Source: Eledone cirrhosa (Eukaryota). From it: a stretch of DNA of 64,000 nt. The stretch covers positions 338,272,001-338,336,000 of the forward strand of contig OZ024741.1 of NCBI GenBank assembly GCA_964016885.1. Reading direction: 5' to 3'. The number at the start of each line of letters is the position of its first letter. The stretch's first letter is position 1. Position numbers and translations under genes: made by a program. The notes beneath the pieces are model-generated. The model saw only the letters and a list, made by a program, of their open reading frames with translations, was not told the origin of the DNA and did not search any database. Below are positions 17,265 to 44,866 of the stretch, one piece after another.

Positions 17265-17342
17265 GATGTGTGTGTGTGTATAGGGAGAGAGGGAAGAGCA
17301 GACGCTCGGACAGGCAGGCAGACAGATAGACATATAGATAGA

Positions 17343-18062
17343 TTTCTTTATTAGCCACAAGGGCGCAACAAGAAAGGGGACAATACAAAGACATGCCGGG
17401 GATTTTACATACAGTCGTGTAAAAAAATATAAAAACAAACAATTTCAACAATCGAAATCCCCAATAGGGGGGAGGCGCCACAAATGGGTTGTTTAATACC
17501 CCGTAGATAGAACAACCCTCAACTTCAGGAGCGTGTTGTGCAAGTGATCCTTTCTTCCTTTTGCTCTTTTCTTCAACCTACAGGCTTATATACAGAGAAG
17601 GCCCAACCACTCGGGCCATTTTTGCCACATTCACCCACCTTTCTGTAAATTTACTGGGGTGCAGTGTCTCTCTCTCTTTCCACTCTGATTCTCCTTCTAA
17701 AGTGGTATCTAAAGAAGGGAATGAGTTGTTGTCCGGAGAGAAAGGCATCTGTCCTCAGTCCTCTCAATCTCGTCCACCATATAACCTCTTTCACCATAGC
17801 CACTGTACAGAGGAAAACCGCCTCTCTTTCGTTATTTAAGGAGGTTGGCGGTTTGATCCTTACTATGTACTCGGCAGTGAACTGGATTTTTACCATACGC
17901 GACAGCAGTTGTTCTGCGTAGTTCCACAGGTCGGTTACGCCGGCGCAGTGTACAATTGAGTGCAAGACAGTTTCAATGACCTGTCCGCATCTTGGACACG
18001 TCCTCTTGGAAGGATCCCTGCCGGGGCATCCGTGCCTGTAGATCTTGTCACGAACTGGTAGA
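17343..18062 (-). mobile_element. Tx1-like element A: 5'-truncated, ORF2 C-terminus + 3' UTR
   Basis: CPRC...ETVLHSIVHC...VIWWTRL...GPSLYISL* (stop at 17578), with a frameshift in an (AG)n run; 3' end AATAAAGAAA then TATC. Confidence 0.9.
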
Positions 18063-24037: not shown

Positions 24038-27000
24038 TTCTTTATTTACCATAAAGGCATGAAAAGAAGGGACAAATACAAAGGGGGAGTTTACATACAA
24101 TCGAGTAAAAAGGGTAGAAAATGAAAATAATCGAAGAGGGGAAGCGGTTTGATTGTCATCACGGACTCGGCGGTCAATTGAATCGGCACCACCCGCGACA
24201 GCAGTCGTTCGGCGTAGCCCCACAGATCAGCCATGCCCGGACATTGCACCAATGCGCGCGCAACGGTTTCTTCGTGACGCACGCATCTAGGGCAAATCTT
24301 TTTTGAGGGATCCCTGCCCGGGCGCCCGTGTCTGTAGAGCCTCTCTCGAACGGGTAGAGCCCCTCGGTAGCACTGCCAGGCCAGTGACTTCTGGAAGTTG
24401 TCCATTGGTCCTGGGCCGAAAGTCCTACCGAACAGGCTGGCCAATTCGTCTTCTTCCATGTCCAGCGACTCTCCAAGGGTGTCATCGCCCCTGCTAGCCA
24501 CCAGCCCTCTATAGAATGATGAGGTGGATTCTCCACCGATGGCCTGGCCCGCTTGCCAGAGAGCCCTGAGCGCCTGAGCACGCTCAGTGTGCCAGTCTCC
24601 CAGTTTTCCGGATCTTTGCTTGACCCAGGACTGCAGCTCGGTGAGCGAGACGAGTCTCGGAAAGGCTCGTTTCACGAACGGAGCCCACACCGGTTGACCA
24701 GTGAAGAATACCTGTAGGTGCCGTAGCCTTAATGCGTGCCTACGCATCATCAACCACGGCATCCCCAGCCCTCCTTTCGAAGGTTGTTGGCAGCAGATGG
24801 ATCTTCTCACCATAGGAGGGCGCTTCTTCCAAAGAAATTGGAAGAGCATGCGTTCCATGGTGGTGAGTGTTTCCTTAGGGCAAGGCACGACAGTCAGGCG
24901 GTAGTAAGTGACGGACGCTATGTAAATGTTCGCCACCTCCGCCCGGCCTTTTAGGGACAGCTTACACTTGGCCCATTTCTGGGTTAGTGCAAACACCTTG
25001 TTCGTAACCTCGTTCCAGTTCTTTTCGACCTGGAGATCCGGTCTAAACCAGACCCCAAGCAACTTTACCGGGCCCTCCGTCCAGTGTCCGACGACACCGT
25101 CGGGAGGCATCGGTCTGCCTCTCCACGTTCCGAGTTGCAGCCCGATGGATTTTTCCCGGTTCAGTTTCGCTCCTGACAACCTTTCGTAATCCTCCAGTAA
25201 GGTACCGATCGCCTCGATCTCCGAGTCGGTCGATACCATTACTGTTACGTCATCGGCGTAGGCCGACACCGTTTTGCTCAATCCTGGTTCCAGGGGGATG
25301 CCCTGCAACAACTCCAACTTCCTCAGTAAAGGCTCGAGAGTCAATACGTACAGAAGGGAGGAGAGAGGGCACCCCTGTCGAATGGATCGTGTGATTTCGA
25401 ACGGCTTCGAAAGGTAGCCATTCACCTTGATCCTAGAACAGATGTGGTTGCTATGTAAGGCAGTGATCCAGCCTCTGAAAACAGGACCGAACCCAGCCGC
25501 CGCTAGCACCGCATCCAGGTAACCATGGTCGACCCTATCGAAGGCCTTAGACTGATCCAAGTTGATCAGGGCCCCACCGAAGCCGGGTTTGTTGCCAACC
25601 CTCTCTATGATGTATCGCATGAGGTGGAGGTTATCGTGAATGGACCTGGATGGGATAGCACATGTCTGTGCATCTCCCACCAGGCCACCCACGACAAGCG
25701 CCAACCTCTTTGCTAACACCTTGGCCAAAATCTTTAACTCTGTGTTTAGCAGGGTTATGGGCCGAAAATTATTTATACTATCTCCCTTGTTCTCGTCCTT
25801 CCTCACCAGCGTGACTACGCCCTTGGCTACAGAACAAGGAATTCTCCCGTTCTGCTGCCAATTGCAGTAGACCGCTTCGAGGAGTTCGGAGAAGAAGACC
25901 GGCATTGTTAAATAAAGTTCGTAAGGTATACCATCGAGACCTGGAGATTTGCGTCTGCTGCATTGGCTCAGCGCATCTCCGATCTCATCAGCCGAGATTG
26001 GTCCCTCGCAGGACTCTGCCTCTTCGCTCGAGAGACGCGGCAGGCCGTCGAGGTATGGACCGAAATCCACGTCCCCGCCCGGACCCTCGCCTCCCCCGAA
26101 CAATCGGGCAAAGTGCCTTTGAAAGGCCTCGCACATCTGCTTAGGCTCCCGGATCACCCGTCCATCTTCGTCTTGCAACGACCGGATGGTGGATCGATTT
26201 CCACTCTTAGCTTCTGTCACGCGGGCCCAGCCAACGGTTTTGGCCCCCTCATTACCTAGAGCACGTATTTTACTTCGAATGACGCAGCCTTCGTGCTTTG
26301 CATCGAAAAACTGGTTCAAGGCCGTCCTCGATGCCAGCACTCTGGCCACTTCTTCGCTCTTGATTGCCTCTTCTAATTTACCTGTTAATTCTTTCTCGTT
26401 TCTATTCCTATCGGCAGCTAACATCTTGCTATAACTTATTGATTCTGTTTTAATCTCTCTTTTGAGAGATGCCCACCATCGGTTGTTGACGATTGCACCC
26501 GTCAACCTCTCCTTAACTAATCTGCTAATCCGGTTTCTGTAAGTCTCTTTTGCCGGTAAAGACAAATTAAGTTTCCAGTAACCGGGACCCTGTTTATGTG
26601 TTTTCTCGAGATTGACTACGCAGGTCACTAATTTGTGATCCGTGTAGCCAACCGTGCGCATTTCTGGACAGCTTAATATGTGCCTATCCTTACTTCTAAC
26701 TAAGAATCTATCTAAGTACGATCTAGATTGACCACTGTGGTTTCTCCAAGTCCAGGTAGGCACAGTTGGAAAATCTAGTCGATATCTATCGACCAAGTTA
26801 AAACGGTCGAGTAACCCCTTGAGGCTGTTACACCCCCCTCTATTAGGACATGCTCCTGCATAGTCCCAACGTGCATCTAGGATGTCATTCCAATCCCCCG
26901 CTAGAAGCAGGGAACGCGACGTTCCCAGAAAAGTCTCTAAACGCTGGAAGAAGTCGGGCCGTTCAGCTCCGAAAGGGGAGTAGACGGCGACCAGTCTTAA

Positions 27001-27156
27001 GGCCGCACCTTCACTACTGCCAACGTCTAGCACCAACAAACGACCCTCCGGGTCCGAGTGCACAACCTGTACGGCAAGACCCAGGTGTTTTTGCAGCAGT
27101 ACGACAACCCCACCCCCACCTCCAGGTTGACAGAGAGATGCATGCACCTCAAAGTC

Positions 27157-27157
<1 letters not shown>
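24037..27157 (-). mobile_element. Tx1-like element C: 5'-truncated within the endonuclease, with a ~374-bp deletion near the 3' end; same subfamily as F
   Basis: Nearly identical to F by eye; the junction at 24133-24135 joins the F-equivalents of 39121 and 39495 through a GAA microhomology. Confidence 0.93.
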
Positions 27158-27237: not shown

Positions 27238-30200
27238 TGTTTCTTTTATTTGCCACCGGAGCATCAAAAGTGGAACAAGTACAATGGGGGCAGTTTACAC
27301 AAAAAGGCGTCCTCAATAAGGAGGAGGCAATAAGAAAATATAAAAATAAAATAAAATATAACAAAAAATAAAATTTATAACAAAATCCTCAATAGAGAGG
27401 AGGCGCCTTGGGGGGTCGCACACACCCCCGAAAAAAGTGTGCAACCCTTCTCCTCAGGAGCACAGAGAGGGGGTGCTCCCTCGTTCCTTCCTCTTTTCCA
27501 CCTACAGGCTTATGTAAAGAGAAGGCCCATTCACACGGGCCATTCTCGCCACTTTCACCCACCTTTCATAAAAACGGTTGGGGTGGAGCACCTCACTCTC
27601 CATCCTGATCCTTCTTCCGAAATGATATCGGAAGAAACGGACCAGTTGTTGGCCAGAGAGAAAGGTGCCTGACCTCAGTCCTTTCAGACGCGTCCACCAA
27701 ACAACTTCTTTCACCATGGCTATTACGCACAGAAACACCTCCTCTCCTTCATTTTTGAAGGGGGGAGGCGGCTTGATCATTACAATAGACTCGGTGGTCA
27801 ACCGGATCGGTCCCACCCTTGACAGCAGTTGTTCGACATAGCCCCACAGATCGGCTACGCCCGAGCAGTGTACCAATGCGTGTGCAACGGTTTCCTCGTC
27901 GCACACGCATCTGGGACAGATCTTTTTGGCGGGGTCCCTACCCGGGCGCCCGTGTCTGTAGAGCTTTTCTCGAACGGGTAGAGCCCCTCGGTAGCACTGC
28001 CAGGCCAGGGACTTCTGGAAGTTGTCCATAGGTCCCGGGCTGAATGTCCTACCGAACAGGCTGGCCAGTTCGTCCTCCTCCATGTCTAGGGCTTCTCCGA
28101 GGGCGTCGTCGCACCTGCTGCGTACCAGTCCTCTATAGAATGTTGCGGTGGAGTCTCCACTGACAACCGGATCCGCCTGCCAGAGGGCGGTGAGCACCTG
28201 GGCACACTCAGTGTGCCAGGCGCCCAGTTTTCTCGGTCTTTGCTTGACCCAGGATTGCAGCTCGGTGAGTGAGACGAGTCTGGGAAAGGTTCGTCTCACA
28301 AACGAGGCCCACACCGGTTGACCGGTGAGGAATACGTGGAGGTGCGGTAGCCTTAATGCGTGTTTACGTATCATTAGCCACGGCATCCCCAGCCCTCCTT
28401 TCGAAGGCTGTTGACAGCAGATGGATCTCCTCACCAAGGGAGCCCGCCTCTTCCAAAGGAATTGGAAGAGCGCGCGCTCCATTTTGGCGAGGGTTTCCCT
28501 TAGGCAAGGCACAACGGTCAGGCGGTAGTAGATGACGGACGCTATATAGGTGTTCGCCACCTCCGCCCGACCTTTTAGGGATAGTTTGCAACTGGCCCAC
28601 TTCTGGGTCAGTGTAAACACCCTGTTCGTAACCTCCGCCCAGTTCTTCTCCACCTGGAGGTCTGGTCCGAACCAGATCCCGAGCAACTTCACCGGGCCCT
28701 CCGTCCAGCGTCCGACGACGCTATCGGATGGCATCGGTCTGCCCCTCCACGTGCCGAGTTGCAAACCGATCGGCTTGTCCCGGTTCAGCTTAGCCCCTGT
28801 GAACCTTTCGTACTCCTCCAGTAAGGTGCCGATCGCCCCGATTTCGGAGGCCGTCGACACCATTACTGTCACGTCATCGGCGTAGGCCGACACCGTTTTC
28901 CGCAATCCCGGTTCCAAAGGGATGCCCTGCAACAACTCCAACTTCCGCAGTAGTGGCTCGAGAGTCAACACATACAGAAGGGAGGAGAGAAGGCACCCTT
29001 GTCGGATGGACCGCGCGATTTTGAACGGCTCAGAGAGGTAGCCGTTCACCTTGACCCTAGAGCAGATGCGGCTGCTGTGCATAGCAGTGATCCAGCCCCT
29101 GAAAACGGGTCCGAAGCCTGCCGCCGCTAGCACCGCATCCAGGTAACCATGGTCGACCCTATCGAACGCCTTAGATTGATCCAAGTTGATCAGAGCCCCA
29201 CCAAAGCCGGGTTCGTTCCCAACCCTCTCTATGATGTATCGCATGAGGTGGAGGTTGTCATGGATGGACCTGGACGGGATAACACATGTCTGCGCATCTC
29301 CCACCAGGTTGCCCACCACAAGCGCCAACCTCTTTGCTAGCACCTTGGCCAAAATCTGTAACTCTGTATTTAGCAGAGTTATGGGCCTGAAGTTACTTAT
29401 TTCGTCCCCCTTGTTCTCGTCCTTCCTCACTAGCGTGACTACGACCTTGGTCACAGTACAGGGAATTCTCCCGTTCTGTTGCCAGTTGCAGTAGACCGCC
29501 TCGAGGAGATTGGGGAACAAGTCCGGCATAGCTAGATATAATTCGTATGGAAGACCATCGAGACCCGGGGATTTGCGTTTGCCGCATTGGCCCAGCACGT
29601 CCTCTATCTCAGCGGCCGAAATCGGCTCCTCGCAGGACTTCGCCTCCCTGTCCGAGAGACGCGGCAGGCCGTCGAGGTATGGACCGAAGTCCACATCCCC
29701 AACCCGCTCCCCGCCCCTTCCGAACAGTCGGGCAAAGTGCCTTTGAAAGGCCTCACACATCTGCTTAGGCTCAAGGATCGCCCGTCCATCCTGGTCTCGC
29801 AAAGACCGGATGGTGGATTTAGTTCCACTCTTGGCCGCTGTCACGCGGACCCAGCTAACAGCTTTGGTCCCCTCGTTCCCTAGAGCACGTATTTTACTTC
29901 GGACAACGCAGCCTTCGTGCTTCGCGTCGAAAAACTGGCTCAAAGCCGTTCTCGACGCTAGCACTCTGGCCACGTCGCCGCTTCTAATTGCCTCTTCTAC
30001 ACTATCTATTAGCTCCCTTTCCTTCCTATTCCTATCCGCAGCTAGAACCTTACTAAATTCTATCGAGATACTCTAATCTCTCTCTTTAGAGATACCCACC
30101 ACCTGCTGTTGACGATCGCTCCAGTCAACCGTTCCTTAACTAACGTACTAATCCGATCCCTGTAAGCTCTACTTGCCGGCAAGGACAAGTTGAGCTTCCA

Positions 30201-33013
30201 GTAACCGGGGCCCTGTCTATGCGTTCTATCAAGGTTGACCATGCAGGTCACCAACTTGTGGTCTGAATAGCCAACCATGAGCATTTCTGGACAACTTAAA
30301 AAGTCCCTGTCCTTATTTCTAACTAAAAACCTATCTAGGTACGACCTAGATGATCCGCTGCGATTTGACCAAGACCAGGTTGGCACCGTCGGAAAATCTA
30401 GTCGAAATCTATCGGCCAGGTCAAATCGGCCGAGTAACCCCTTGAGGCTGTTGCACCCCTCTCTATCGGGACATGCCCCTGCATAGTCCCAACGTGCATC
30501 CAGGATACCATTCCAGTCCCCCACTAAAAGCAGGGAACGGGACGTCCCTAGAAAAGACTCCAGACGCTGGAAAAAGTCGGGCCGCTCTGTCCCAAAAGAG
30601 GCATATGCGGCTACCAGCCTAAAGGCTCTACTTTCACCACTGCCAAGGTCCAGCACCACCAGTCGACCCCCTGGGTCCAAGTGAACTATCTGTGTGGCAA
30701 GGCCCAGATGTTTTTGCAGCAGAACGACAACCCCACTCCCACCTCCGGGCTGACAGAGAGATGCGTGCATCTCAAAGTCGTCAAAGGTGGGGGCTAGCTG
30801 TCGCATGCTGCTGATCCGGGCCTCGCAGATAACCATCACATTTATAGATCGTGACCTGAGGTCATTTAGAAGCATTGCTTGCTTCCAAGATGAGCTCAGG
30901 CCACGCGCATTTAGACACCCGATTCTTAGCACAGCCATGTTAGTGGTAAGGAGAAAAGGCACTTACCTCTCTGCGTCCCGGGAAGCGGGCCGCTCAATTT
31001 CCATGCTGGTTGGGGATGGGTTGTTGGGTGGGGCGGTGGTTTGTGGAAGTGAAGGGGCATCAGTGTGTTGTGGGGTTGGGGCGTTTGTGGTTGAGTGGGT
31101 GTCTGGGTGGGTGGGGGTGAATTTTTTTAGGAGGACGCGGTTGATTGGCTTGGCGCAGGGGGGGGGCACGTCCTCCGTGAAATTTGTTTTCAGTGTTTTA
31201 TAAAAGTTCATTGGGACTTTAATCATTTTTAAATGAGGTAGTCCCACAGCAGTTATAAAGTTAGGCCCTTCAGTTTGGACCGAAGGGTTTGATGAAATTG
31301 TTTTCAGTAGTTCTTTGTTGTCTGTGTTCATGTATGTATATTGTAAAGTCTTTTTTGTGTAGCAGTTAGTGTTGTGTGACGGGGAGGGGTGGTTTGTGTG
31401 TAGTTTGTGTTCTCTTGGGGAGGGTTAATGTTAACAAGTGTGTCTGTGGTGCGCCTCCTCTTCTTTCTTTTTACTGTTTGGAAGGGATCTTTTTCGTCTT
31501 GCGACGAAAGGGGTTCGTCTTCCTTGTTGGGTGGGAGGGGTATGTTTTCTGGTAGTGTTTGCGGTGTGTGTGTTTTTGTATTTGTTTTGGGTGGAGAGGG
31601 GTTGGGTGGGACAGTATTCTGTGTTGTTTTTTCACGTGTTTGTTGTTGTTGTTGTTGTTGTGGTGGTGGTGGTGGTGGTGTTGGTTTTTGTTGTTGTTGT
31701 GGTTGTTTTGTTTTTTTGTTGTTGGGGTGGTGTTGGTGTTGGTAGCAGTGTTTTTTTCTGTGTGATCTGGGGACAGGCAGCCCTCAGGTGACCTCTATTG
31801 CCACAGAGGTAACAGGAGGGACGCCACCCTCCACAATAATGTTGAGGTGGGTACGGTCATCCAGCATGACGCGCTCAGGGATTTGGGCGATACGTTCTGG
31901 CCTTATTTGGGTCAGAACTTCGATACTCGTTCCACTGAACGCGTCGCCGGATGCCTTCCCTATTGAAATGAGGTTGTCCTCGTCTAAATTGAGGAAACCG
32001 GTTAGTAACCACCAGTAGTTTATGTTTGGGTGATGGTGGTTATCCATATTCTCTGGGGTTTTTTACCCATGTAGGTGGGGAAGAAGGTGTAGTGTGTGGA
32101 ACGAATTGGCGACACAGAGTATTTTTTCGCCGCCAATTCGTCTTTCATCAATATGGATAAACTCCCATAGAGTTTATCCTTTTGTATGAAAGTGATGTCT
32201 TTCATCGCTTCTTTCAGTACTAACTGAATTTCAGCTTGAGATGGTTGTGCTGGTTTTTTTGTTTTATTTAAAATTGTACGGAATACGACAGTTCGTAATT
32301 CCGTCTGTTTTTTTAGTTCTGGAGGTGAATTTATAGAAAACGAACCGTTTTCGCCAAAAGATACATATTTTTTGGCTTTTTCCAGCATTTCTTTGGCTTT
32401 TGAAATATCTTCAAGCACATAAGTGACTGATAATTTAGCCGTTTGTGCAAAAGACATTTTGTTTTCGTTGTTGGTGTTTGTATTGTTTTGTTTCTCGTCG
32501 TTTGAGTTGTTTTCATCTTTGTTGTTGTCTTTCTCGTTTGGTGTGTGGATACTTGTGACGTTTGTGTTGTTGTTGTTTTTGTTGTCTTTATTGTTGCTGT
32601 TGTGGTCGTTGTTGTTGTTTTCAGTTTCTTGTATAGTTGTGGCTACACAAGTTGTCGGTCAACAGGTGAAGAAAATTCTTCCTCTGGCTGACCTCTGCCT
32701 TTGGCATCTGCTGCTGTGACAGTGGCAGAGGAAGCTGTGAGTATGACTTCCCTTTTCTTCCTTTGACTGTTGGTGAAGATGCTTCAGCCATTTTTATCAA
32801 AATAGGATTTTTCGAAATTTTTCGAAAGATAAAATGTTTACAATACTATTTCGCCTAAAGGCGTAGAATATTTTGAGAGACTGACCAGATCAAAATTTGA
32901 CCTGGCAGTCCCTCTACAAAATGGTACGAAAATAAAAGTTTACAGTTCACAATTTCCCGATAAATTTAAACGAAACTTACCGAGCGAGCTCAGCACATGT
33001 GTCCATCCCAGAG
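27238..33013 (-). mobile_element. Tx1-like element D: full length, ORF1 (30963-~32791) broken, ORF2 (27502-30938) with one frameshift near 30060
   Basis: APE endonuclease ORF 30060-30962 (NARGL, ICE, GDWN, YLDR, SDH); RT ORF 27502-29973. Confidence 0.93.
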
Positions 33014-33038: not shown

Positions 33039-33277
33039 TATTTCTTTATTAGCCACAGGGGCACAAAAGAAGGGGACAAATACAAAGGGGGAAGTTTAGA
33101 TACAATAAAAACGTGTAAAATGTTATCACAGATGGAATTTAAAAGTTAGTCGATTTTCCCCAATAGAGGGAGACAGTTTATATGGGTAACACATACCCCC
33201 GAAAAAAATGTGCAACCCTCATCTCCAGGAGTACGAAGAGCTTGTACTCCTTTCCTCTCCTCCTCCTTTTCCTCAAT

Positions 33278-36200
33278 CTACAGGCTGATATAGAGAGAAG
33301 GCCCATTCACTCGGGCCATTCTCGCCACTTTCACCCACCTTTCATAAAACTTGCTGGGGTACAGCACCTCTCTCTCCATCCTGATTCTTCTTCCAAAGTG
33401 GTATTTGAAAAAAAGAATCAGTTGTTGGCCGGAGAAAAAGGTGTCTGACCTCAGCCCTTTCAACCTTGTCCACCATACAACCTCTTTCGCCATAGCTATC
33501 ACACAAAGGAAAACCGCCTCTCCTTCGTTTTTGAAGGAGGGTGGCGGTTTGATCATGACAATGGACTCGGTGGTCAACTGGATTGGTCCCACCCGCGACA
33601 ATAGTCGTTCTACATATCCCCACAGATCAGTGACGCCCGGGCAGTGTATGAATGCGTGCGCGACGGTTTCTTCGTCTCGCACGCACCTCGGACAGATCTT
33701 TTTTGCAGGGTCCCTGCCCGGGCGCCCATGTCTGTAGAGCTTGTCTCGAACTGGTAGAGCTCCTCGGTAGCACTGCCAGGCCAGGGACTTTTGGAAGTTG
33801 TCCATCGGTCCCGGGCGGAAGGTCCTACCGAACAGACTGGCCAGTTCATCTTCCTCCACGCCTAGAGTTTCACCGAGCGCGTCGTCGCACTTGCTGCGAA
33901 CCAACCCTCTATAGAATGACGAAGTGGAGTCTCCACTGATCGCCGGGTCCGCCTGCCAGAGGGCTGTGAGCGCCTGAGCACATTCGATGTGCCAGTCGCC
34001 CATTTTCCTCGGTCTCTGCTTGACCCAGGACTGCAGCTCGGTCAGTGAGACGAGTCGTGGGAAGGCTCGCCTCACGAACGGGGCCCACACCGGTTGTCCG
34101 GTGAGGAATACGTAGAGATGCCGCAGCCTGAGCGCGTGTTTGCGCATCGTCAACCACGGCATCCCCAGCCCTCCGTTAGAAGGGTGTTGGCAGCAGATGG
34201 ATCTTCTTACCAAAGGAGCCCGCCTCTTCCAAAGGAATCGGAAGAGGGCGCGCTCCATTTTGGCGAGCATTTTGGCTGGACAAGGCACGACGGTCAAGCG
34301 GTAGTAGATGGCGGACGCTATAAAAGTGTTCGCCACCTCCGCTCGACCTTTCAAGGATAGTTTGCACTCGGCCCACTTCTGGGTGAGTGCAAACACCTTG
34401 GCCGTCACTTCGTTCCAGTTCTTCTCCACCTGGAGGTCCGGACCAAACCAGACCCCGAGCAGCTTTACCGGTCCTTCCGTCCAGCGTCCGACGACGCCAT
34501 CGGAAGGCATCGGTCTGCCTCTCCACGATCCGAGTTGCAAACCGATGGACTTGTCCCGGTTCAGCTTCGCTCCTGTGAGACTTTCGTATTCCTTTAGTAA
34601 GGTGCCGACTTTCTCGATTTGCGAGGCGCTCGACACCATTACTGTCACGTCGTCGGCGTAGGCCGACGCCGCTTTCCGCAGTCCCGGTTCCAGAGGGATG
34701 CCCTGCAATAGCTCCAGCTTCCGCAGTAGTGGCTCGAGAGTCAGTACGTACAGAAGGGAGGAGAGAGGGCATCCCTGTCGAATGGATCGCGTAATATGGA
34801 ACGGCTCCGAGAGGTAACCGTTCACCTTGACCCTTGAGCAGATGTTGCTGTTGTGCATTGCAGCAATCCAGCCCCTGAACACGGGTCCGAAGCCTGCCTC
34901 CTCGAGCACCGCATCCAGGTAACGATGGTCAACCCTATCGAAAGCCTTAGACTGATCCAAGTTGATCAGGGCCTCACCGAAGCCGGGTTTACACCCTACC
35001 CTCTCTATGATGTATCGCATGAGGTGGAGGTTGTCGTGTATGGACCTGGTCGGGATCGCGCATGTCTGCGCTTCTCCCACCAGGTTCTCGACGACAAGCG
35101 CCAGCCTCTTTGCCAACACCTTGGCCAAAATCTGTAACTCTGTGTTTAGCAGAGTTATGGGCCGGAAGTTGCCTATGTCATCCCCCTTATTCTCGTCCTT
35201 CCTGATTAGTGTGACCACGCCCCCGGCTACAGAACTGGGAATTCTCCCGTTCTGTTGCCAGTTGCAGTAGACCGCTTCCAGGAGACCGGAGAATAAGTCC
35301 GGCATTGCTACGTAAAATTCGTAGGGTAGACCGTCGAGACCTGGAGATTTGCGTTTGCCGCATTGGCTCAGCGCGTCCCCTATCTCAGTGGCTGAAATCG
35401 GCTTTTCGCAGAACTTCGCCTCGCTGTCCGAGAGTCGCGGTAGGCCGTCGAGGTATGGACCGAAATCCATAGCCTCTCCCGGCGCGCCGCTCCCCCCGAA
35501 CAGCCGAGCAAAGTGCCGCTGAAAAGCCGCACACATCTGCTTCGGCTCACGTATCACGCGTCCGTTTTGGTCCTTCAAAGACCGAATCGTGGACTTGTTG
35601 CCACTTTTTGCCTCCGTCACTCGGGCCCAGCTAACAGCTTTGGCTCCCTCGTTTCCCAGAGCACGTATTTTGCTTCTGACAACGCAGTCCTCGTGCTTTG
35701 CGTCGAAGAACTGGTCCAAGGCCGTTCTCGTTGCTAGCACGCTGGCTACGTTGCCACTTCTAATAGCCTCTTCTACTTTATCTACCAGTTCCTTCTCGGT
35801 TCTATTTCTATCTAACGCTAATTCTTTACTAAAAACTATCGAGTCTAATCTAACTGCCCTCTTGAGAGAGTACCACCATCTGTTGTTGACAATGGCCCCT
35901 GTCAAGTGCTGTTTAACTAAAGTGCTAATCCGTCTACTGTAGGCTTTGCTTGTCGGTAACGACAAGTTCAGCTTCCAGTAGCCGGGTCCTTGTCTATGGG
36001 TTCTATCAAGGTTGGCCATGCAGGTCACTAGTTTGTGATCTGAATAGGCAACCATGAACATTTGTGGACAGCTTAACATGTCCCTATCCTTATTTCTAAC
36101 TAGAACCCTATCTAGGTACGATCTAGATGTTCCGCTACGATTACTCCACGTCCACAGTGGCGCAGTCGGAAAATCTAGTCGATATCTATCGGCCAGGTCA

Positions 36201-36715
36201 AATCGGTCGATTAACTGTTTGAGGCTGTTACACCCCCCTTTATCGGGACATGCTCCCACATAGTCCCAACGTGCATCTAGGATTCCATTCCAGTCCCCCA
36301 CTAAAAGCAAGGAGCGGGACGTTCCCAGAAAAGTCTCTAGACGTTTGAAGAAGTCTGGCCGCGGTGTCCCGGATGGGGCATATGCGGCCACCAGCCTGAA
36401 CGCTCCACCTTCACTACCGTCAACGTCTAGGACCACCAGTCGACCCTCCGGGTCCAGATGTACCGTCTGTGTTACGAGGCCCAGGTGTTTCCGCAGCAAA
36501 ACGGCAACTCCGCCCCCACCCCCCGGTTGACAGAGAGATGCGTAGATCTCAAAGTCATCGAAGATGGGGGCCAGCTGTCGCTCGCCGTGGATCCTGGACT
36601 CGCAAATGGCTACCACATCCAAACTGTGCGACCTGAGGTCGTTTAAGAGTTTGCCCTGTTTCCAGGGCATCCCCAGGCCGCGTACGTTCACACATCCAAC
36701 TCTTATATTGGCCAT
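33278..36715 (-). CDS. ORF2p: APE endonuclease + reverse transcriptase + CCHC zinc knuckle (1145 aa), L1/Tx1 clade
   Basis: NVRGL, ICES, YAP, GDWN, YLDR, SDH; GPGYWKLN; KSPGLDGLP, NFRPITLLN, LDQSKAFDRVDH, RQGCPLS, YADD; CPRC-x8-H-x4-C. Confidence 0.97.
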   Translation of the reverse strand: MANIRVGCVNVRGLGMPWKQGKLLNDLRSHSLDVVAICESRIHGERQLAPIFDDFEIYASLCQPGGGGGVAVLLRKHLGLVTQTVHLDPEGRLVVLDVDGSEGGAFRLVAAYAPSGTPRPDFFKRLETFLGTSRSLLLVGDWNGILDARWDYVGACPDKGGCNSLKQLIDRFDLADRYRLDFPTAPLWTWSNRSGTSRSYLDRVLVRNKDRDMLSCPQMFMVAYSDHKLVTCMANLDRTHRQGPGYWKLNLSLPTSKAYSRRISTLVKQHLTGAIVNNRWWYSLKRAVRLDSIVFSKELALDRNRTEKELVDKVEEAIRSGNVASVLATRTALDQFFDAKHEDCVVRSKIRALGNEGAKAVSWARVTEAKSGNKSTIRSLKDQNGRVIREPKQMCAAFQRHFARLFGGSGAPGEAMDFGPYLDGLPRLSDSEAKFCEKPISATEIGDALSQCGKRKSPGLDGLPYEFYVAMPDLFSGLLEAVYCNWQQNGRIPSSVAGGVVTLIRKDENKGDDIGNFRPITLLNTELQILAKVLAKRLALVVENLVGEAQTCAIPTRSIHDNLHLMRYIIERVGCKPGFGEALINLDQSKAFDRVDHRYLDAVLEEAGFGPVFRGWIAAMHNSNICSRVKVNGYLSEPFHITRSIRQGCPLSSLLYVLTLEPLLRKLELLQGIPLEPGLRKAASAYADDVTVMVSSASQIEKVGTLLKEYESLTGAKLNRDKSIGLQLGSWRGRPMPSDGVVGRWTEGPVKLLGVWFGPDLQVEKNWNEVTAKVFALTQKWAECKLSLKGRAEVANTFIASAIYYRLTVVPCPAKMLAKMERALFRFLWKRRAPLVRRSICCQHPSNGGLGMPWLTMRKHALRLRHLYVFLTGQPVWAPFVRRAFPRLVSLTELQSWVKQRPRKMGDWHIECAQALTALWQADPAISGDSTSSFYRGLVRSKCDDALGETLGVEEDELASLFGRTFRPGPMDNFQKSLAWQCYRGALPVRDKLYRHGRPGRDPAKKICPRCVRDEETVAHAFIHCPGVTDLWGYVERLLSRVGPIQLTTESIVMIKPPPSFKNEGEAVFLCVIAMAKEVVWWTRLKGLRSDTFFSGQQLILFFKYHFGRRIRMEREVLYPSKFYERWVKVARMARVNGPSLYISL

Positions 36716-36748
36716 GTTGGTGCTGAAAAGTTAAAAGAGGAAAAGAGA

Positions 36749-38653
36749 TCACTCACCCTTCGCCTCCTGGGGACCAGGCCGCACGATTTCCATGGGGGTG
36801 TTGGAGGGGTTGTCTGGATGGGTGGTGGTTTCCGGCGGGGTGGGGACGCAGATGTTTGGTGGGGTGGGGTCTGGTGGGATGGGGGTGTCTGGGGTGGGGA
36901 GGCATTTGAGAAGGACGCGGTTGAGTGGTTTCACGCAGGAATTCCCCACATCCTTCTCAAATGTTTCTTTTAGGGACCTATAAGTTTGTATAGGGACCCT
37001 AATCAGTTTTAGGTTCATTTTTTTGCTATTTTTTATAGAGTGGGCGAAAGTTTTCCCTTCGGTGAAAACCGAAGGGTCGTTCGTAATGGTCTCCATTAGT
37101 GTTTTGTTTTCAGTGTTTATGTAAGTGTAAGTGTAATTTTCTTGTGTTGTGTTTGTTTTTGTCTGTAGTTCTTGTGTGTGCTTTCGTTTTGTTGTAGGTA
37201 TTTTGTTTTCAGGAGGTGGGGGTTTTGTTTGTGATATTTTTGTTGTTTGTGTTGGTGGTTGTATGTTTGTGGTAGTGTTTGCTGGTTTTTTGCTTTTGTG
37301 ATGTCTTTTCTTTCTTTTCGAGCGATGGGGTTCTCCCTCGTCTTCACTGGGTGATGGCGAGATTGCCTCATCTGTTGTATCGTCTGTGTGATTGGGGAGG
37401 GGTATGTCTTGGGGAGCTGTTGTGTCTGTATGTGATTTTGCAGTGGTTTTAGGTGGAGTGAGGTTGGGTGGGACTGTGTTTGTTGTGGTTATTTTTGTGT
37501 GTTGGTGTTGTTGTTGTAGTGGTGGTGTTGGTGGTTGTGTTGTTTTGATGGGTGTTGGCAGAAGAGCCTTTTTTTGGTTCATTAGTTTAGGACAGGAAGC
37601 CCTCAGGTGACCCCTGCTAAAGCAATGGTAACATGAAGGCCGCCTACCCTCAACCGAAAGGTTTATGTAGGTAAGTCCGTCCAGGAGTACACGCTGTGGG
37701 ATCATAGCTATTCGCTCTGGGCTCATTTGCACCAGAACTTCAATGCTAGTCCCATTGAATACATCTCTGGGGGACTTGCCTACTGACAGTATTCTGTCTT
37801 CATCAAAATTGATGAAGCCGCACAGTATCCACCATATGTTCACCTTTGGTGTGACACTTGTGATTCTGATCTTTTGTGTCCTTTTTCCCATGTATGTAGG
37901 GAAAAAGGTGTACAGGTTGGATACAATTGGCGACACAGAGTAATTTTGGGCCGTCAATTGATCCTTCATCAGTACCGAAATACTCCCAAAAAGTTTGCTT
38001 CTTTGAATGAATGCAATATCATTCATTGAATCTTTGAAAACCAGTTCAATATCTTTCTGTGACAATTGGACTGGTTTTCGGGTAGAATTGGAAACTGTCC
38101 TAAAAACTATCGTTTTGAGAGCAGTTTCCTTGCGAATTTCTACCGGAGAATTGATGCTGAAAGCACCATTTTTTTCGAAGGTGACATATCTCTTAGCGTC
38201 CTTTAAAAGGTGTTCAGCATTTGTTATGTCGAGATATATCAATTGTTCTTTCTTTTGAACTTTCTCCGCAAAGGAGATTTTTGGTTTCTTTGTGGAATCC
38301 GTATTGGTGGTGTTGTCATTATTGTTGTTATTCTTGTTGTCACCGATGTTGGTATCATCCGTATTTTCCTTGGTGTTGTTGTTGTCTTTGATGCTGGTGT
38401 TATTGGCGTTGTCTTTATTTTTTTCTTTGTTGTTGTTATCATTGTTGCTTTTATCATCATTATTGGTTTTGCTGTTATTTTTGTTGTCATTGAGCTGTTT
38501 GGTGTCATTTGTGTTGTTTGGATGTGAATTCGTTTTTTTATTTTCATTTTGTCTTTCCATCTCTATAGTATCTAGTGAAGAAGACGTTGTTGACTGCGAG
38601 CTTTGTAGTCTTACCGCCTCTCCACCACCATTATCGTTGGACGCAGCGTTCAT
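36749..38653 (-). CDS. ORF1p (634 aa): Asn-rich N-terminus, conserved core, single CCHC knuckle, Pro/Thr-rich linker, conserved C-terminal block
   Basis: CYHCFSRGHLRASC; basic KRKKRHHKSKK; homologous to the ORF1 remnants of B, D and F. Confidence 0.92.
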   Translation of the reverse strand: MNAASNDNGGGEAVRLQSSQSTTSSSLDTIEMERQNENKKTNSHPNNTNDTKQLNDNKNNSKTNNDDKSNNDNNNKEKNKDNANNTSIKDNNNTKENTDDTNIGDNKNNNNNDNTTNTDSTKKPKISFAEKVQKKEQLIYLDITNAEHLLKDAKRYVTFEKNGAFSINSPVEIRKETALKTIVFRTVSNSTRKPVQLSQKDIELVFKDSMNDIAFIQRSKLFGSISVLMKDQLTAQNYSVSPIVSNLYTFFPTYMGKRTQKIRITSVTPKVNIWWILCGFINFDEDRILSVGKSPRDVFNGTSIEVLVQMSPERIAMIPQRVLLDGLTYINLSVEGRRPSCYHCFSRGHLRASCPKLMNQKKALLPTPIKTTQPPTPPLQQQHQHTKITTTNTVPPNLTPPKTTAKSHTDTTAPQDIPLPNHTDDTTDEAISPSPSEDEGEPHRSKRKKRHHKSKKPANTTTNIQPPTQTTKISQTKPPPPENKIPTTKRKHTQELQTKTNTTQENYTYTYINTENKTLMETITNDPSVFTEGKTFAHSIKNSKKMNLKLIRVPIQTYRSLKETFEKDVGNSCVKPLNRVLLKCLPTPDTPIPPDPTPPNICVPTPPETTTHPDNPSNTPMEIVRPGPQEAKGE

Positions 38654-38871
38654 AACGTAATCAAAATTTTACAATATTTTTTCCAAGATTCGATGGAGAA
38701 AAATTTTTTAAATGGATATTCCGCCCCTGAAGGGGCGAAAATGAGTTGACCCACCACCTGAAGGTCCAGACGGGGGGGTCAAGTTACACAATGATATAAA
38801 ATTGAACTAAAAACTCACGTTTTTTCCTTACATAAATTAACGGAAACTTCTCCGCGAAGTGACACACGACT

Positions 38872-38957
<86 letters not shown>

Positions 38958-39024: not shown

Positions 39025-42000
39025 TTTCTTTTTTTACCATAAAGGCATAAAAAGAAGGGACAAATACAAAGGGGGAGTTTACATACAATCGAGTAAAAAG
39101 GGTAGAAAATGAAAATAATCGAAAATAACCTCAAAAGGGAGGGGACGGGATGGGGGTTGCACACACCCCCGAAAAAGTGTGCAATCCTTTGCCCGGGGAG
39201 CACATGGAGAAGGTGCTCCCCTCTCCTTCACTTCTTTACCTACAGGATGGTATACAGAGAAGGCCCATTTACACGAGCCATTCTCGCCACTATCACCCAC
39301 CTTTCATAAAACTGCCTGTGGCCAAGCACCTCTCTCTCCATTCTTATCCTTCTTCCGAAGTGATATCGGAAGAAGTAGACCAGGCTATGGCCAGAGAGGA
39401 AGTTGCCTGACCTCAGACCTTTCAATCGTGTCCACCAAACAACCTCTTTTAACATGGCTATTACGCACAGAAAAACCGCCTTTGCTTCCTTTGTGAAGAG
39501 GGGAGGCGGTTTGATTGTCATCACGGACTCGGCGGTCAATCGAATCGGCGCCACCCGCCACAGCAATCGTTCGGCGTAGCCCCACAGATCAGCCACGCCC
39601 GGACATTGCACCAATGCGTGCGCAACGGTTTCTTCGTGACGCACGCATCTAGGGCAAAACTTTTTCGAGGGATCCCTACCCGGGCGCCCGTGTCTGTAGA
39701 GCCTCTCTCGAACGGGTAGAGCCCCCCGGTAGCACTGCCAGGCTAGTGACTTCTGGAAGTTGTCCATTGGTCCCGGGCCGAAAGTCCTACCGAACAGGCT
39801 GGCCAGTTTGTCCTCTTCCATGTCCAGCGACTCTCCAAGGGTGTCATCGACCCTGCTAGCCACCAGCCCTCTATAGAATGATGAGGTGGATTCTCCACCG
39901 ATGGCCTGGCCCGCTTGCCAAAGAGTCCTGAGCGCCTGAGCACACTCAGTGTGCCAGTCTCCCAGTTTTCCGGATCTTTGCTTGACCCAGGACTGCAGCT
40001 CGGTGAGCGAGACGAGTCTCGGAAAGGCTCGTTTGACGAACGGAGCCCACACCGGTTGACCAGTGAGGAATACCTGTATGTGCCGTAGCCTTAATGCGTG
40101 CCTACGCATCATCAACCACGGCATCCCCAGCCCTCCTTTCGAAGGTTGTTGGCAGCAGATGGATCTTCTCACCATAGGAGGGCGCTTCTTCCAAAGAAAT
40201 TGGAAGAGCATGCGTTCCATGGTGGTGAGTGTTTCCTTAGGGCAAGGCACGACAGTCAGGCGGTAGTAAGTGACGGACGCTATGTAAATGTTCGCCACCT
40301 CCACCCGGCCTTTTAGGGACAGCTTACACTTGGCCCATTTCTGGGTTAGTGCAAACACCTTGTTCGTAACCTCGTCCCAGTTCTTTTTCACCTGGAGGTC
40401 CGGTCCAAACCAGACCCCAAGCAACTTTACCGGGCCCTCCGTCCAGTGTCCGACGACACCGTCGGGAGGCATCGGTCTGCCTCTCCACGTTCCGAGTTGC
40501 AGCCCGATGGATTTTTCCCGGTTCAGTTTCGCTCCTGACAACCTTTCGTAATCCTCCAGTAAGGTACCGATCGCCTCGATCTCCGAGTCGGTCGATACCA
40601 TTACTGTTACGTCATCGGCGTAGGCCGACACCGTTTTGCTCAATCCTGGTTCCAGGGGGATGCCCTGCAACAACTCCAACTTCCTCAGTAAAGGCTCGAG
40701 AGTCAATACGTACAGAAGGGAGGAGAGAGGGCACCCCTGTCGAATGGATCGTGTGATTTCGAACGGCTTCGAAAGGTAGCCGGTCACCTTGATCCTAGAA
40801 CAGATGTGGTTGCTATGTAAGGCAGTGATCCAGCCTCTGAAAACAGGACCGAACCCAGCCGCCGCTAGCACCGCATCCAGGTAACCATGGTCGACCCTAT
40901 CGAAGGCCTTAGACTGATCCAAGTTGATCAGGGCCCCACCGAAGCCGGGTTTGTTGCCAACCCTCTCTATGATGTATCGCATGAGGTGGAGGTTATCGTG
41001 AATGGACCTGGATGGGATAGCACATGTCTGTGCATCTCCCACCAGGCCACCCACGACAAGCGCCAACCTCTTTGCTAACACCTTGGCCAAAATCTTTAAC
41101 TCTGTGTTTAGCAGGGTTATGGGCCGAAAATTATTTATACTATCTCCCTTGTTCTCGTCCTTTCTCACCAGCGTGACTACGCCCTTGGCTACAGAACAAG
41201 GAATTCTCCCGTTCTGCTGCCAATTGCAGTAGACCGCTTCGAGGAGTTCGGAGAAGAAGACCGGCATTGCTAAATAAAGTTCGTAAGGTACACCATCGAG
41301 ACCTGGAGATTTGCGTCTGCTGCATTGGCTCAGCGCATCCCCGATCTCATCAGCCGAGATTGGTCCCTCGCAGGACTCTGCCTCTTCGCTCGAGAGACGC
41401 GGCAGGCCGTCGAGGTATGGACCGAAATCCACGTCCCCGCCCGGACCCTCGCCTCCCCCGAATAATCGGGCAAAGTGCCTTTGAAAGGCCTCGCACATCT
41501 GCTTAGGCTCCCGGATCACCCGTCCATCTTCGTCTTGAAACGACCGGATGGTGGATCGATTTCCACTCTTAGCTTCTGTCACGCGGGCCCAGCCAACGGC
41601 TTTGGCCCCCTCATTACCTAGAGCACGTATTTTACTTCGAATGACGCAGCCTTCGTGCTTTGCATCGTAAAACTGGTTCAAGGCGGTCCTCGATGCCAGT
41701 ACTCTGGCCACATCTTCGCTCTTGATTGCCTCTTCTAATTTACCTGTTAATTCTTTCTCGTTTCTATTCCTATCGGCAGCTAACATCTTGCTATAACTTA
41801 TTGATTCTGTTTTAATGTCTCTTTTGAGAGATGCCCACCATCGGTTGTTGACGATTGCACCCTTCAACCTCTCCTTAACTAATCTGCTAATCCGGTTTCT
41901 GTAAGTCTCTTTTTTCCGGTAAAGATAAATTAAGTTTCCAGTAACCGGGACCCTGTTTATGTGTTTTCTCGAGATTGACTACGCAGGTCACTAATTTGTG

Positions 42001-44866
42001 ATCCGTGTAGCCAACCGTGAGCATTTCTGGACAGCTTAATATGTCCCTATCCTTACTTCTAACTAAGAATCTATCTAAGTACGATCTAGATTGACCACTG
42101 TGGTTCGTCCAAGTCCAGGTAGGCACAGTTGGAAAATCTAGTCGATATCTATCGACCAAGTTAAAACGGTCGAGTAACCCCTTGAGGCTGTTACACCCCC
42201 CTCTATTAGGACATGCTCCTGCATAGTCCCAACGTGCATCTAGGATGTCATTCCAATCCCCTGCTAGAAGCAGGGAACGCGACGTTCCCAGAAAAGTCTC
42301 CAAACGCTGGAAGAAGTCGGGCCGTTCAGCTCCGAAAGGGGAGTAGACGGCGACCAGTCTCAAGGCCGCACCTTCACTACTGCCAACGTCTAGCACCAAC
42401 AAACGACCCTCCGGGTCCGAGTGAACAACCTGTACGGCAAGACCCATGTGTTTTTGCAGCAGAACGACAACCCCACCCCCACCTCCAGGTTGACAGAGAG
42501 ATGCATGCACCTCAAAGTCATTGAAGGTAGGGGCCAGCTGCCGCACGACGCTGATCCGAGTCTCACAGATAACCATTACATTTATACCACATGACCTGAG
42601 GTCATTTAGAAGCTTTGCTTGCTTCCAAGTTGAACCCAGGCCACGTGCATTCAAACATCCTATTCTTAACACATCCATGTGGGCGGCAAAGCCAAAGGAG
42701 AGTGTAGTGACCTACCTTTCTGCTTCCCGGGGTTCGGGTCGCACGACTTCCATGGGGTCGGGGGTGTTGGGTGAAGGGGTGTCTTGTGGTGGTGTGGGGT
42801 CGTCAGTGTGTGGTGGGGTTGGGGTGTTTGGAGTTGTGTTGGGGAGGGGAAGGGGAAAGCTTTTTAGTAGGACGCGGTTTATGGGTTTGACAGAGGGTGG
42901 TCCTACGTCCTCCTTGAAATCCTTTTTTAGTTTTTGGTAGAGGTTCATTGGGATCTTTATTAATTTTAAATGTGGGTAGTTTTCTGAAGAAACAAAGTTT
43001 ACACATTCGGTTTGTACCGAAGGATTATTGTTTATGAGTTCATTTAATTTATTATTGTTTCTGTTGATGTAAGTATAGTGTAATGTCTTTTTTTCGGATG
43101 GTGTGAGTGTTTCGAAGAGGGGAGGGGCAGGTTTGGTTTTGTTTGTTGCTGGAGGGGTGTTTTGTGTTTTGTTGGATTGTGTTGACATTTGGGTGGGGGT
43201 TGTTTGGCCTTGTGTGTTTTGCACATGTTTTCTTTTTTTCCTTTTAATCTGTCTGAAGGACTCCGTTTCTTCCTCCGAATTCGTTGGGTTATCTTCAGTG
43301 TTGGAGGGAAGAGGTATGTTTGCTGGTAATGTTTCCGTGTTGGTTTTCTTTGTGGGGGAGATGGATGTCACTATGTTAGACTGTGTTATGTGTTGTGGCT
43401 GCGGTGGTTGTGTTGTTTTATTGAGTGAGGGGTTGGGTGGGCCTGTATTTTGTTTTGGGGTAATATGTTGTGACTGTTTGTGTTGTGGTGGTGGTGTAGT
43501 TTTACTGAGAGACGGGTTGGGTGGGACTGAGTTTTGTTGTTTGTTTATCTGTTGTGGTGGTGGTGGTGGTGGAGCTGGTGTTGGTAGCAGGGTTTTCTTT
43601 TTGTTGAGTTGGGGACAAGCCGCCTTCAGGTGCCCTCTGCCTGCATAGATATGACAGGACGGCCTTCTCCCCTCCACGCTAATGTTTATATACCCGTGGC
43701 CCTCTAATAGGATTCTGTCGGGTATTTGGGCGATGCGTTCAGGCTTCATTTGCACTACAAGTTCTATACCTGTTCCACTGAACGCATTGCCTGTGGTTTT
43801 CCCAATGGAAATCACGTTGTCATTCGCTGGATAGATGAAGCCAGCTATGAGCCAGCAGTAGTCCACATCTGGCATCATTGCATCCAGCCATATGCGTTGA
43901 GTTCTTTTACCCATATAAGATGGATAAAAGGTAAAAAATTTCGAACGAATCGGTGACAAAGCACATTTTTTGGCCGCCGATTCGTTCTTCATAATAATCG
44001 CTAGGCTTCCATACAGTCTGTCTTTTCTTATGAAAGTGGTTTCATTAAGTACTTCTGTAAGTACTGTTTTGATTTCTGTTTGAGTTGGCTGTTCAGGTTT
44101 TTTAGAAATGTTGTTGATGGTGCGGAAAACGACTGTTCGACTTTCAATGTCTTTGGTGAGTTCTTGAGGCATTTTTATCGATAAAATACCATTTTCTCCT
44201 TCAGTTATGTATTGTTTGGCGTCTGCAATTCTTTGTGCCACATCTGAAATATTTTCAGGTATATATGTCAAAGATTTCTTTGTTGTTTGTGCAAATGAAA
44301 TATTATTGGTGTTGACTTTGTCGTCTGCATTGCTTTCTGTTATGATGTTGTTTTCAAATGTTATTTTTGTGTTTGTCGTGTCTTTGTTTGTGGTATTAAT
44401 ATTGTCATGCAATTTTTCAAATTTTTTTTTTTTCGTTGTTGGAATCCATGTCCAGATTTGTGTTTTCGTCATTTTTCTCCGCAGATTCGTCTGTTTTTAT
44501 TTTAATTTTTCTTTCCTTCTCTATGACGTTAGTTGGGAAGGAAGGGGGGACTAAAGCGTGCGAGCTTACAACTCTTACTGCTGTCCCCCCCCCCCCCCCC
44601 CCCCACTATTTTGGTTAGCTTCGTTTAACATTTCTGTCAGACGATTGAAATTTTTTATGCCATAAAATTTTTAAAAACAGGTTTTTCACCCCTAGGAGGG
44701 GTAAAGATGAGCTGACCCACCGCCTGACAGTTCAGACGGGGGGTCAAGCTACACAATAGTATCAAAATTAAAATTGAACTTACAAAATTTCCGCAATAAA
44801 TTTGAACAAAACTTCTGCGCGAAGTGAATTACATCTACGCTGTAGAACAGACGACAGCTAGATTTA
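39025..44866 (-). mobile_element. Tx1-like element F: full length; ORF2 (39240-42678) with a +1 frameshift in a homopolymer near 41910; ORF1 (42712-~44631) frameshifted near its 5' end
   Basis: Endonuclease ORF 41887-42678, RT ORF 39240-41867, ORF1 586-aa open part; ORF1 knuckle mutated (CHIYAGRGHLKAAC). Confidence 0.94.

Follow-up and report, generated by a model that had tools for sequence, protein, structure and literature searches.

A conserved 5' splice-site motif at the end of ORF1 in L1/Tx1-type LINEs of Eledone cirrhosa, and a plausible partner at the ORF2 stop codon

The DNA considered here, a 64,000-nucleotide window of the Eledone cirrhosa genome (assembly GCA_964016885.1, contig OZ024741.1, positions 338,272,001 to 338,336,000 of the forward strand), carries on its minus strand a head-to-tail array of six related long interspersed nuclear elements (LINEs), copies A to F, with (TAGA)n tracts between them. 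At the point where the first of the two open reading frames (ORFs) of these elements, ORF1, gives way to the second, ORF2, there is a motif with the features of a 5' splice site, and the comparisons described below indicate that this donor motif is real and selected. Its partner, a candidate acceptor at the ORF2 stop codon, is plausible, if unproven. Should the two be joined in RNA, the predicted intron would enclose the entire ORF2, and part of the element RNA would become an ORF1-only messenger (coordinates in Table 1).

The comparisons were made by pattern searches of the genome (3.0 Gb). A pattern for the ORF2 C-terminus gave 23,015 matches, against none for its control, and one for an ORF2 N-terminal coding motif gave 5,080, both being lower bounds; with at least 23,015 ORF2 ends to at least 5,080 ORF2 starts, 5' truncation is typical of these elements. 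Among copies drawn from the matches, 54 with both ORF2 ends were recovered and sorted into lettered families, of which A, B, D, E and F are named after the window copies and C, G, H, I, J, K, M, N and T were added (family C being distinct from window copy C). Intact ORF2 proteins are 67-99% identical across families, and a nucleotide tree of 15 representatives has a length of 1.6.

The four donors proposed in an earlier sequence-only reading of the window were all found on the minus strand where that reading had put them: AG/GTAGGT in copy B (21844), AG/GTAAGT in D (30966), GG/GTGAGT in E (36756) and AG/GTAGGT in F (42715). Beyond the window, GTRRGT stands 25-47 nt upstream of the ORF2 start in all 14 family groups, with ORF2 identity down to 67%, and family T has the donor though its ORF1 tail is unrelated. 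A pattern combining the ORF1 end with the donor matched the genome 2,460 times, as against 56 for the control. The search for the ORF2 N-terminus, which was blind to the donor, led to GTRRGT in 97 of the 100 matches listed from the 5,080 (counted by eye) and, by script, in 28 of 30 fetched loci. The donor is the best or tied-best U1 match among the 250-474 GT sites of 11 of 17 representatives; no more than one site does better in 14 of the 17, and two of the other three are single copies in which GT has become AT.

The motif occurs in three phases of ORF1: phase 2 in families C, D, F, H, J, K, M, A and T, phase 1 in E and G, and phase 0 in B, the phases of I and N being less sure. Phase 2 donors overlap an arginine codon and the stop codon, which explains GTRR but not positions +5 and +6. 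Stop-codon context as the sole cause was rejected, since a motif kept in phases 0 and 1 as well is not accounted for by the stop codon alone. On the tree, donor positions +3 and +4 vary between A and G only and +5 and +6 are invariant, while positions +7 to +16 have changed 2-6 times each; as the tree sites were anchored on the motif itself, it is the presence of the motif in every family, not the zero count at +5 and +6, that constitutes the evidence. These sequence comparisons lend good support to the view that a 5' splice-site motif is under selection where ORF1 ends.

There is little chance that the motif, together with the pyrimidine run and CAACATG that follow it, is instead a translation signal (a stop context, a reinitiation signal or an internal entry to ORF2) whose likeness to a donor is accidental. 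Its short distance from the ORF2 start would suit such a role, as would the fact that GTRR in phase 2 amounts to a G-ending codon plus any stop and that the ORF2 end likewise reads G-TAG-GT; family B, moreover, has no ORF2 ATG, so that ORF2 initiation is unusual there. That said, the motif persists in phases 1 and 0, where it does not serve as a stop, its variation is confined to the two positions where U1 pairing permits it (+3 and +4, A or G), and the same motif recurs in the 5' untranslated region (UTR), away from any stop. In family B the ORF2 frame opens with ATA, overlapping the ORF1 stop (window 21805-21812, minus strand; L152, L158-L160), and is nevertheless open in copy L159, which suggests non-AUG initiation or a frameshift.

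Most 5' UTR types, different as they are, carry the second donor-like site, GTRRG[TC], at a distance of 30-85 nt from the 5' end (family T reads AAG/GTAT or AAG/GTTT there). In the window it is found at 23783, 32980, 38818 and 44783 (minus strand), followed by a U-rich stretch, and an AG lies 59-67 nt beyond it in C/D, E, F, B, K and G; families A, T, H and J have only a weak 5' UTR AG. In most families genome-wide the GT...AG segment so delimited measures 59-69 nt. A pair of C/D variants, unlike in their first exon and in the interior of the segment, have kept both of its ends. Shuffled sequences yield the motif with a probability of 0.09-0.21 per UTR. Two hairpins lie between the segment and the ORF1 start, directly before the latter.

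At the far end of the predicted intron, the five ORF2 ends of the form CCTTCTCT...CTGTAG were likewise confirmed, at 17578, 18374, 27502, 33278 and 39240 (minus strand). The proposal that the stop codon doubles as an acceptor does not hold for family T, whose ORF2 ends in CTG TAA (18 of the first 100 listed ORF2 ends). By an ad hoc acceptor score, fixed before use, the stop-codon AG ranks between first and sixth of about 260 AGs in 12 of the 14 TAG families and 11th in family C; its mean score, 14.0, is the highest, as compared with 12.4 for the best of 83 other conserved AG columns. In family T a long stretch rich in U leads to a CAG 180 nt downstream of the TAA stop, and this AG ranks first of 261 (score 17.4). 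The TAA and the UTR CAG occur together in 19 of 20 T copies, whereas in family I, the sister of T, 27 of 28 copies have TAG and none has the UTR CAG, the place being occupied by CAC. The hairpin predicted over the final ORF2 codons has a pairing probability of 0.68-0.93 in 13 of the 14 TAG families, and its z values against synonymous shuffles, -0.7 to -2.6 where the stop is TAG and about 0 in T, are to be read beside the 28 of 145 background windows that also reach -2. Synonymous constraint at the last ORF2 codons, which the sequence-only reading had suggested testing, proved to be mild, the last ten four-fold sites averaging 1.4 changes versus 2.4 overall. These patterns lend circumstantial support to a pairing of the donor with an acceptor at or behind the ORF2 stop.

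An in-phase stop immediately after the join had also been claimed. It is present in E and F, the join in F leaving the ORF1 C-terminus unchanged, and absent in B and A. The true ORF1 frame of B is in phase 0 and runs 12 codons beyond the donor (613 open codons in L159), and the join would give 3 codons and then TGA; the family A donors are in phase 2, which puts the GT TGA out of frame and would leave a 28-codon tail in three of four copies. The D join would append 42 codons. Over all families, which are related to one another, a stop within 3 codons of the join occurs in the true phase in 8 of 14 cases, versus 5 of 28 in the other phases.

LINEs need far more ORF1p than ORF2p from a presumed single bicistronic RNA, and the solutions to this problem known to us are translational. 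Here the ratio would be set by splicing. The U1-type donor would pair with the acceptor at the ORF2 stop or, in family T, with the one 180 nt behind it. The spliced RNA, from which the short 5' UTR segment would probably be missing too, would yield abundant ORF1p and no ORF2p, with its stop at or behind the last junction; the unspliced RNA would yield ORF2p and be copied in cis, and genomic copies would hence retain both GT...AG segments. By covering the pyrimidine tract, the predicted hairpin would keep the acceptor weak, so that unspliced RNA survives, and the splice would remove those portions of the structured 3' end that are coding, a loss that may block copying of the spliced RNA in trans. 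U1 binding, splicing, the role of the hairpin and the effect on the ORF1p:ORF2p ratio are all steps that we infer. In its simpler form, in which splicing as in copia gives an ORF1-only mRNA and this mRNA does not go on to be retrotransposed, the proposal is the reading that we favour, though its chances seem to us about even. An extended form is tentative, and we lean slightly against it: a retrovirus-like programme of two RNA pools, in which fully spliced mRNA (5' UTR intron and 3.5-kb ORF2 both removed) would make ORF1p, unspliced RNA would make ORF2p and serve as the sole template, the stop-codon acceptor would operate under a ratio-setting hairpin, and a lost acceptor would be replaced.

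The model for such a scheme is found among the Ty1/Copia elements, where a spliced Gag-only RNA has its stop after the junction, as described for the shGAG RNA of Arabidopsis EVD (PMC5580714) and for barley BARE1 (PMC3735527); the intron of Drosophila copia is about 3 kb, as cited in the EVD paper (PMC5580714). The LINEs resemble these elements in that the structural gene ends in a conserved donor, that a stop follows within 3 codons of the predicted junction in 8 of 14 families, and that a subgenomic RNA, here a predicted one, would supply the protein needed in excess; the U1 site may also guard the full-length RNA. Ty1/Copia elements, however, have long terminal repeats (LTRs), a single polyprotein ORF and demonstrated splicing, whereas these are non-LTR LINEs with two separate ORFs, a predicted intron that holds a whole ORF, and a template RNA that must itself be translated for ORF2p. 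If the proposal is true, a non-LTR element would have converged on the copia or retrovirus strategy by setting the ratio through excision of ORF2; how its RNA, with splice sites intact, can be exported, translated and copied without being spliced would then need explaining.

Several findings weigh against splicing around ORF2. Five junction-pattern searches of the genome for ORF2-less copies returned no true spliced copy, as against at least 23,015 ORF2 ends, though nothing in the splice would remove the 3' UTR or its poly(A) signal. In simulation, 43 of the 52 collected copies would, once joined, have been detected by these searches, which did not extend to families G and I; one badly spaced pattern, which detected 1 of 51 simulated copies, was replaced by a better-spaced one. 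Two matches of the former were set aside because their starts are unlike spliced elements, and the single match of the replacement is an unspliced family K copy. All 30 loci found via the E ORF1 end are unspliced. The prediction that splicing would generate HAL1-like ORF1-only copies therefore fails, and among the three outcomes that the sequence-only reading had named as telling against itself, two have been observed at least in part: no ORF2-less copies, and one family with TAA. The trans rate of human L1 is a few per thousand, and at that rate tens of copies would be expected from a spliced RNA that is abundant. Splicing is still compatible with the lack of such copies, given the preference of L1 proteins for the RNA that encodes them (PMC5860796), provided that the spliced RNA is scarce in the germ line or serves very poorly as a template.

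The short segment in the 5' UTR points the same way. Its precise loss was seen in none of 45 collected 5' ends (two chance anchors dropped), and a modest genome search with one 5' UTR type, carried by 2 of 20 sampled family C copies, found one imprecise deletion and no precise removal. Removal would spare both ORFs, yet the segment is retained, which implies that the copied RNA is unspliced throughout; this retention fits an all-or-none two-pool programme and unspliced U1 sites alike. As for the acceptor, the retention of TAG is within chance (one change on the 15-family tree, where 49% of 92 two-fold purine sites changed once at most), 25 of 460 windows are as low as the last codons in synonymous change, and the pyrimidine tract is also explained by the Pro-Ser-Leu codons and by pairing in the predicted hairpin. 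Since, in addition, any TAG is a YAG, the case for the acceptor is weaker than that for the donor. The stop-codon AG ranks 20th in family I, and high-scoring UTR AGs occur in H, J and D as well (14.4-15.7), so that the gain of an acceptor in T could be chance and the swap, being a single event, is suggestive only. Finally, 6 of the 14 families would gain tails of 20-79 codons after the join.

RNA and protein collections were searched as well. No RNA data set is listed as containing copy E. The junction 33277-36757 is absent among 15 joints listed of 322 (contigs of four runs, kind unrecorded, on 33045-38860), which counts neither way because contigs reveal presence only, and searches of protein collections for spliced ORF1 C-termini found no ORF1 relative.

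The main rival explanation, rather unlikely in our view, is that both donor motifs bind the U1 small nuclear ribonucleoprotein and are seldom or never spliced, guarding the long intronless transcript from premature termination or polyadenylation, while the apparent acceptor is a by-product of TAG and the hairpin. It would account for a second GTRRG[TC] near the 5' end in most 5' UTR types, for donors that are conserved at both sites where the acceptors are variable, and for the finding of neither segment spliced out of genomic copies. ORF1 is rich in A, and in 13 of 14 families it contains 1-5 AATAAA; a 5' splice site is described as blocking termination by Restrictor (PMC12211998), and the U1 site of EVD as suppressing premature polyadenylation (PMC5580714). 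On the other hand, it does not predict that the best conserved acceptor should lie at the stop codon, that T should show the TAA/CAG swap, or that stops should be in phase, and AATAAA occurs within ORF2 in 2 of 14 families only, which leaves few canonical signals for the inter-ORF site to mask. Even on this explanation, a LINE that retains U1 sites as anti-termination signals would be new.

It is improbable that the donor is used with some other partner, whether a host exon downstream, the next tandem element or a site in ORF2, or that the 5' UTR donor is joined to an AG before ORF2 to make an ORF2-only mRNA. The elements are arranged head to tail, an AG lies just ahead of the ORF2 ATG in E, M, N and G (in G1 it is the top-ranked AG), and human L1 is reported to have several donor/acceptor pairs (PMC5860796). 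But no other conserved AG in ORF2 scores equally, there is no AG between donor and ORF2 start in B, C, D, F, H, J, K, A and T, and variable downstream partners would be unlikely to hold the motif under selection.

Splicing of other LINEs has been described in different terms. In human L1 it is inhibitory and leaves dead-end spliced genomic copies, the SpIREs (PMC5860796). The Eledone elements likewise have sense-strand donor motifs and candidate acceptors, 5' UTR included; by contrast with L1, every family has retained its sites, and the searches run turned up no spliced copy. HAL1, an ORF1-only derivative of L1 (PMC5753468), and the telomeric ORF1-only elements of Drosophila (PMC13534243, whose main text never mentions "splic" or "intron") are genomic and non-autonomous. 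The predicted spliced product would resemble them in consisting of ORF1 and 3' UTR without ORF2, whereas the junction searches found no such genomic copy. Antisense introns are described for TART in a report that also cites introns in transcripts of L1 and Tad (PMC1636488). A repeat annotation of Octopus vulgaris lists L1-Tx1 families, with "splic" and "intron" nowhere in its main text (PMC13282606). In the open-access literature, with subscription papers, Repbase notes and supplements outside the scope, we found neither a Tx1 element reported to have conserved splice signals nor a LINE with its whole ORF2 in a conserved intron.

The classification of the elements follows from their domains and their insertion sites. 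Copy E ORF2 has apurinic/apyrimidinic (AP) endonuclease, reverse transcriptase and zf-RVT domains (PF03372, PF00078, PF13966), and its closest solved structure in a PDB search is human L1 ORF2p (E 3e-52). These are the only domains found, and the Ty1/Copia hallmarks (LTRs, protease, integrase) are missing; the elements may work like copia, but they are not members of Ty1/Copia. ORF1 has 590-710 codons across families and a CCHC-type knuckle by eye, with no Pfam match and with Atlas matches that score at most 0.90, one of which carries zf-CCHC. The 3' end has AATAAA and then a microsatellite, thus a poly(A) signal and no LTRs. Insertion is target-specific, both ends adjoining (TAGA)n or (ATT)n in most copies examined. 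The elements are L1/Tx1-group LINEs, target specificity being the sole ground for the Tx1 placement. Kibi and Koshi are the names of Tx1 elements that target microsatellites. With such elements (L1/Tx1 group, PMC3747384) those described here share an ORF2 composed of AP endonuclease, reverse transcriptase and zinc finger, target-specific insertion and tandem arrays in simple repeats, and they differ from the known ones in their targets, (TAGA)n and (ATT)n. The target has switched within the clade, being (TAGA)n for A-F, H and K and (ATT)n for G, T and I; family J sits inside a longer satellite, as tandem arrays.

Among the matches listed, at least 150, the named relatives of ORF2 are hypothetical proteins of Argonauta hians (GAB1597330.1, GAB1601854.1), which supplies the nearest one, and of Patella caerulea (KAK6191805.1). 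In the latter (P0011 cluster) consecutively numbered related ORF2 genes lie on one contig, possibly as a similar tandem array. A metagenome scan for relatives gave two distant fragments only, without usable ORF ends, a viral scan gave none, and an Rfam scan of the elements found no ribozyme or other family at gathering score. One metagenome contig (L280:1715-1860) has a stretch resembling U2 snRNA by eye beside a Tx1-like reverse transcriptase fragment.

Table 1. Element copies of the window and their observed and predicted features (positions in the window).
Feature	Positions	Strand	Remarks
Copy E	33039..38874	-	Full-length, intact two-ORF L1/Tx1-type LINE, flanked by (TAGA)n
E ORF1, 634 aa	36749..38653	-	CxxCxxxxHxxxxC knuckle by eye; no Pfam match
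E inter-ORF 5' splice-site motif AGG/GTGAGT	36751..36759 (first G 36756)	-	Phase 1; followed by pyrimidine run and CCAACATG
E ORF2, 1145 aa	33278..36715	-	AP endonuclease, reverse transcriptase, zf-RVT
E predicted intron, 3,479 nt	36756-33278	-	Encloses entire ORF2
E candidate acceptor	33278..33302 (last G 33278)	-	Pyrimidine tract and TAG stop
E predicted RNA hairpin, final ORF2 codons	33294..33323	-	3' arm is the pyrimidine tract of the candidate acceptor; prediction only
E 3' UTR, predicted last exon	33039..33277	-	Predicted hairpins, U-rich tract, AATAAA (33045-33050)
E 5' UTR GT...AG segment, 61 nt	38758..38818	-	Starts with second donor-like GTGAGT
F predicted intron	39240..42715	-	Donor 42715 (phase 2) to ORF2 stop 39240
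F 5' UTR GT...AG segment, 60 nt	44724..44783	-	
D predicted intron	27502..30966	-	Donor 30966 (phase 2) to ORF2 stop 27502
D 5' UTR GT...AG segment, 67 nt	32914..32980	-	Best-formed among the short intron-like segments
B predicted intron	18374..21844	-	Donor 21844 (phase 0, 12 codons ahead of ORF1 stop) to ORF2 stop 18374
B 5' UTR GT...AG segment, 60 nt	23724..23783	-	
Copy A	17340..18062	-	5'-truncated; retains ORF2 end (17578) and 3' UTR
Copy C	24038..27157	-	5'-truncated; internal deletion took ORF2 end and 3' UTR start

The families differ in age and completeness. Family E is very young, all 40 scored genome matches to copy E being 100% identical over 204-301 nt; its youngest copies read TAG/A and older ones TAG/G. 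Family T consists mostly of long copies, 16 of the 18 fetched (L121-L138) retaining ORF2 from its first 15 codons, and A-type copies are mostly truncated. In window copy C, at 24038-24133, ORF2 is fused straight to an F-type late 3' UTR, and the ORF2 end and UTR hairpins are gone; this deletion and that of copy L258 were rejected as splice products, their ends not being GT..AG. Other mobile-element remnants of the window, at 52934-54016 (plus strand), 59362-60345 (minus) and 10838-11761 (minus), comprise one reverse transcriptase fragment with a PHD-finger match and two ORFs without a Pfam match.

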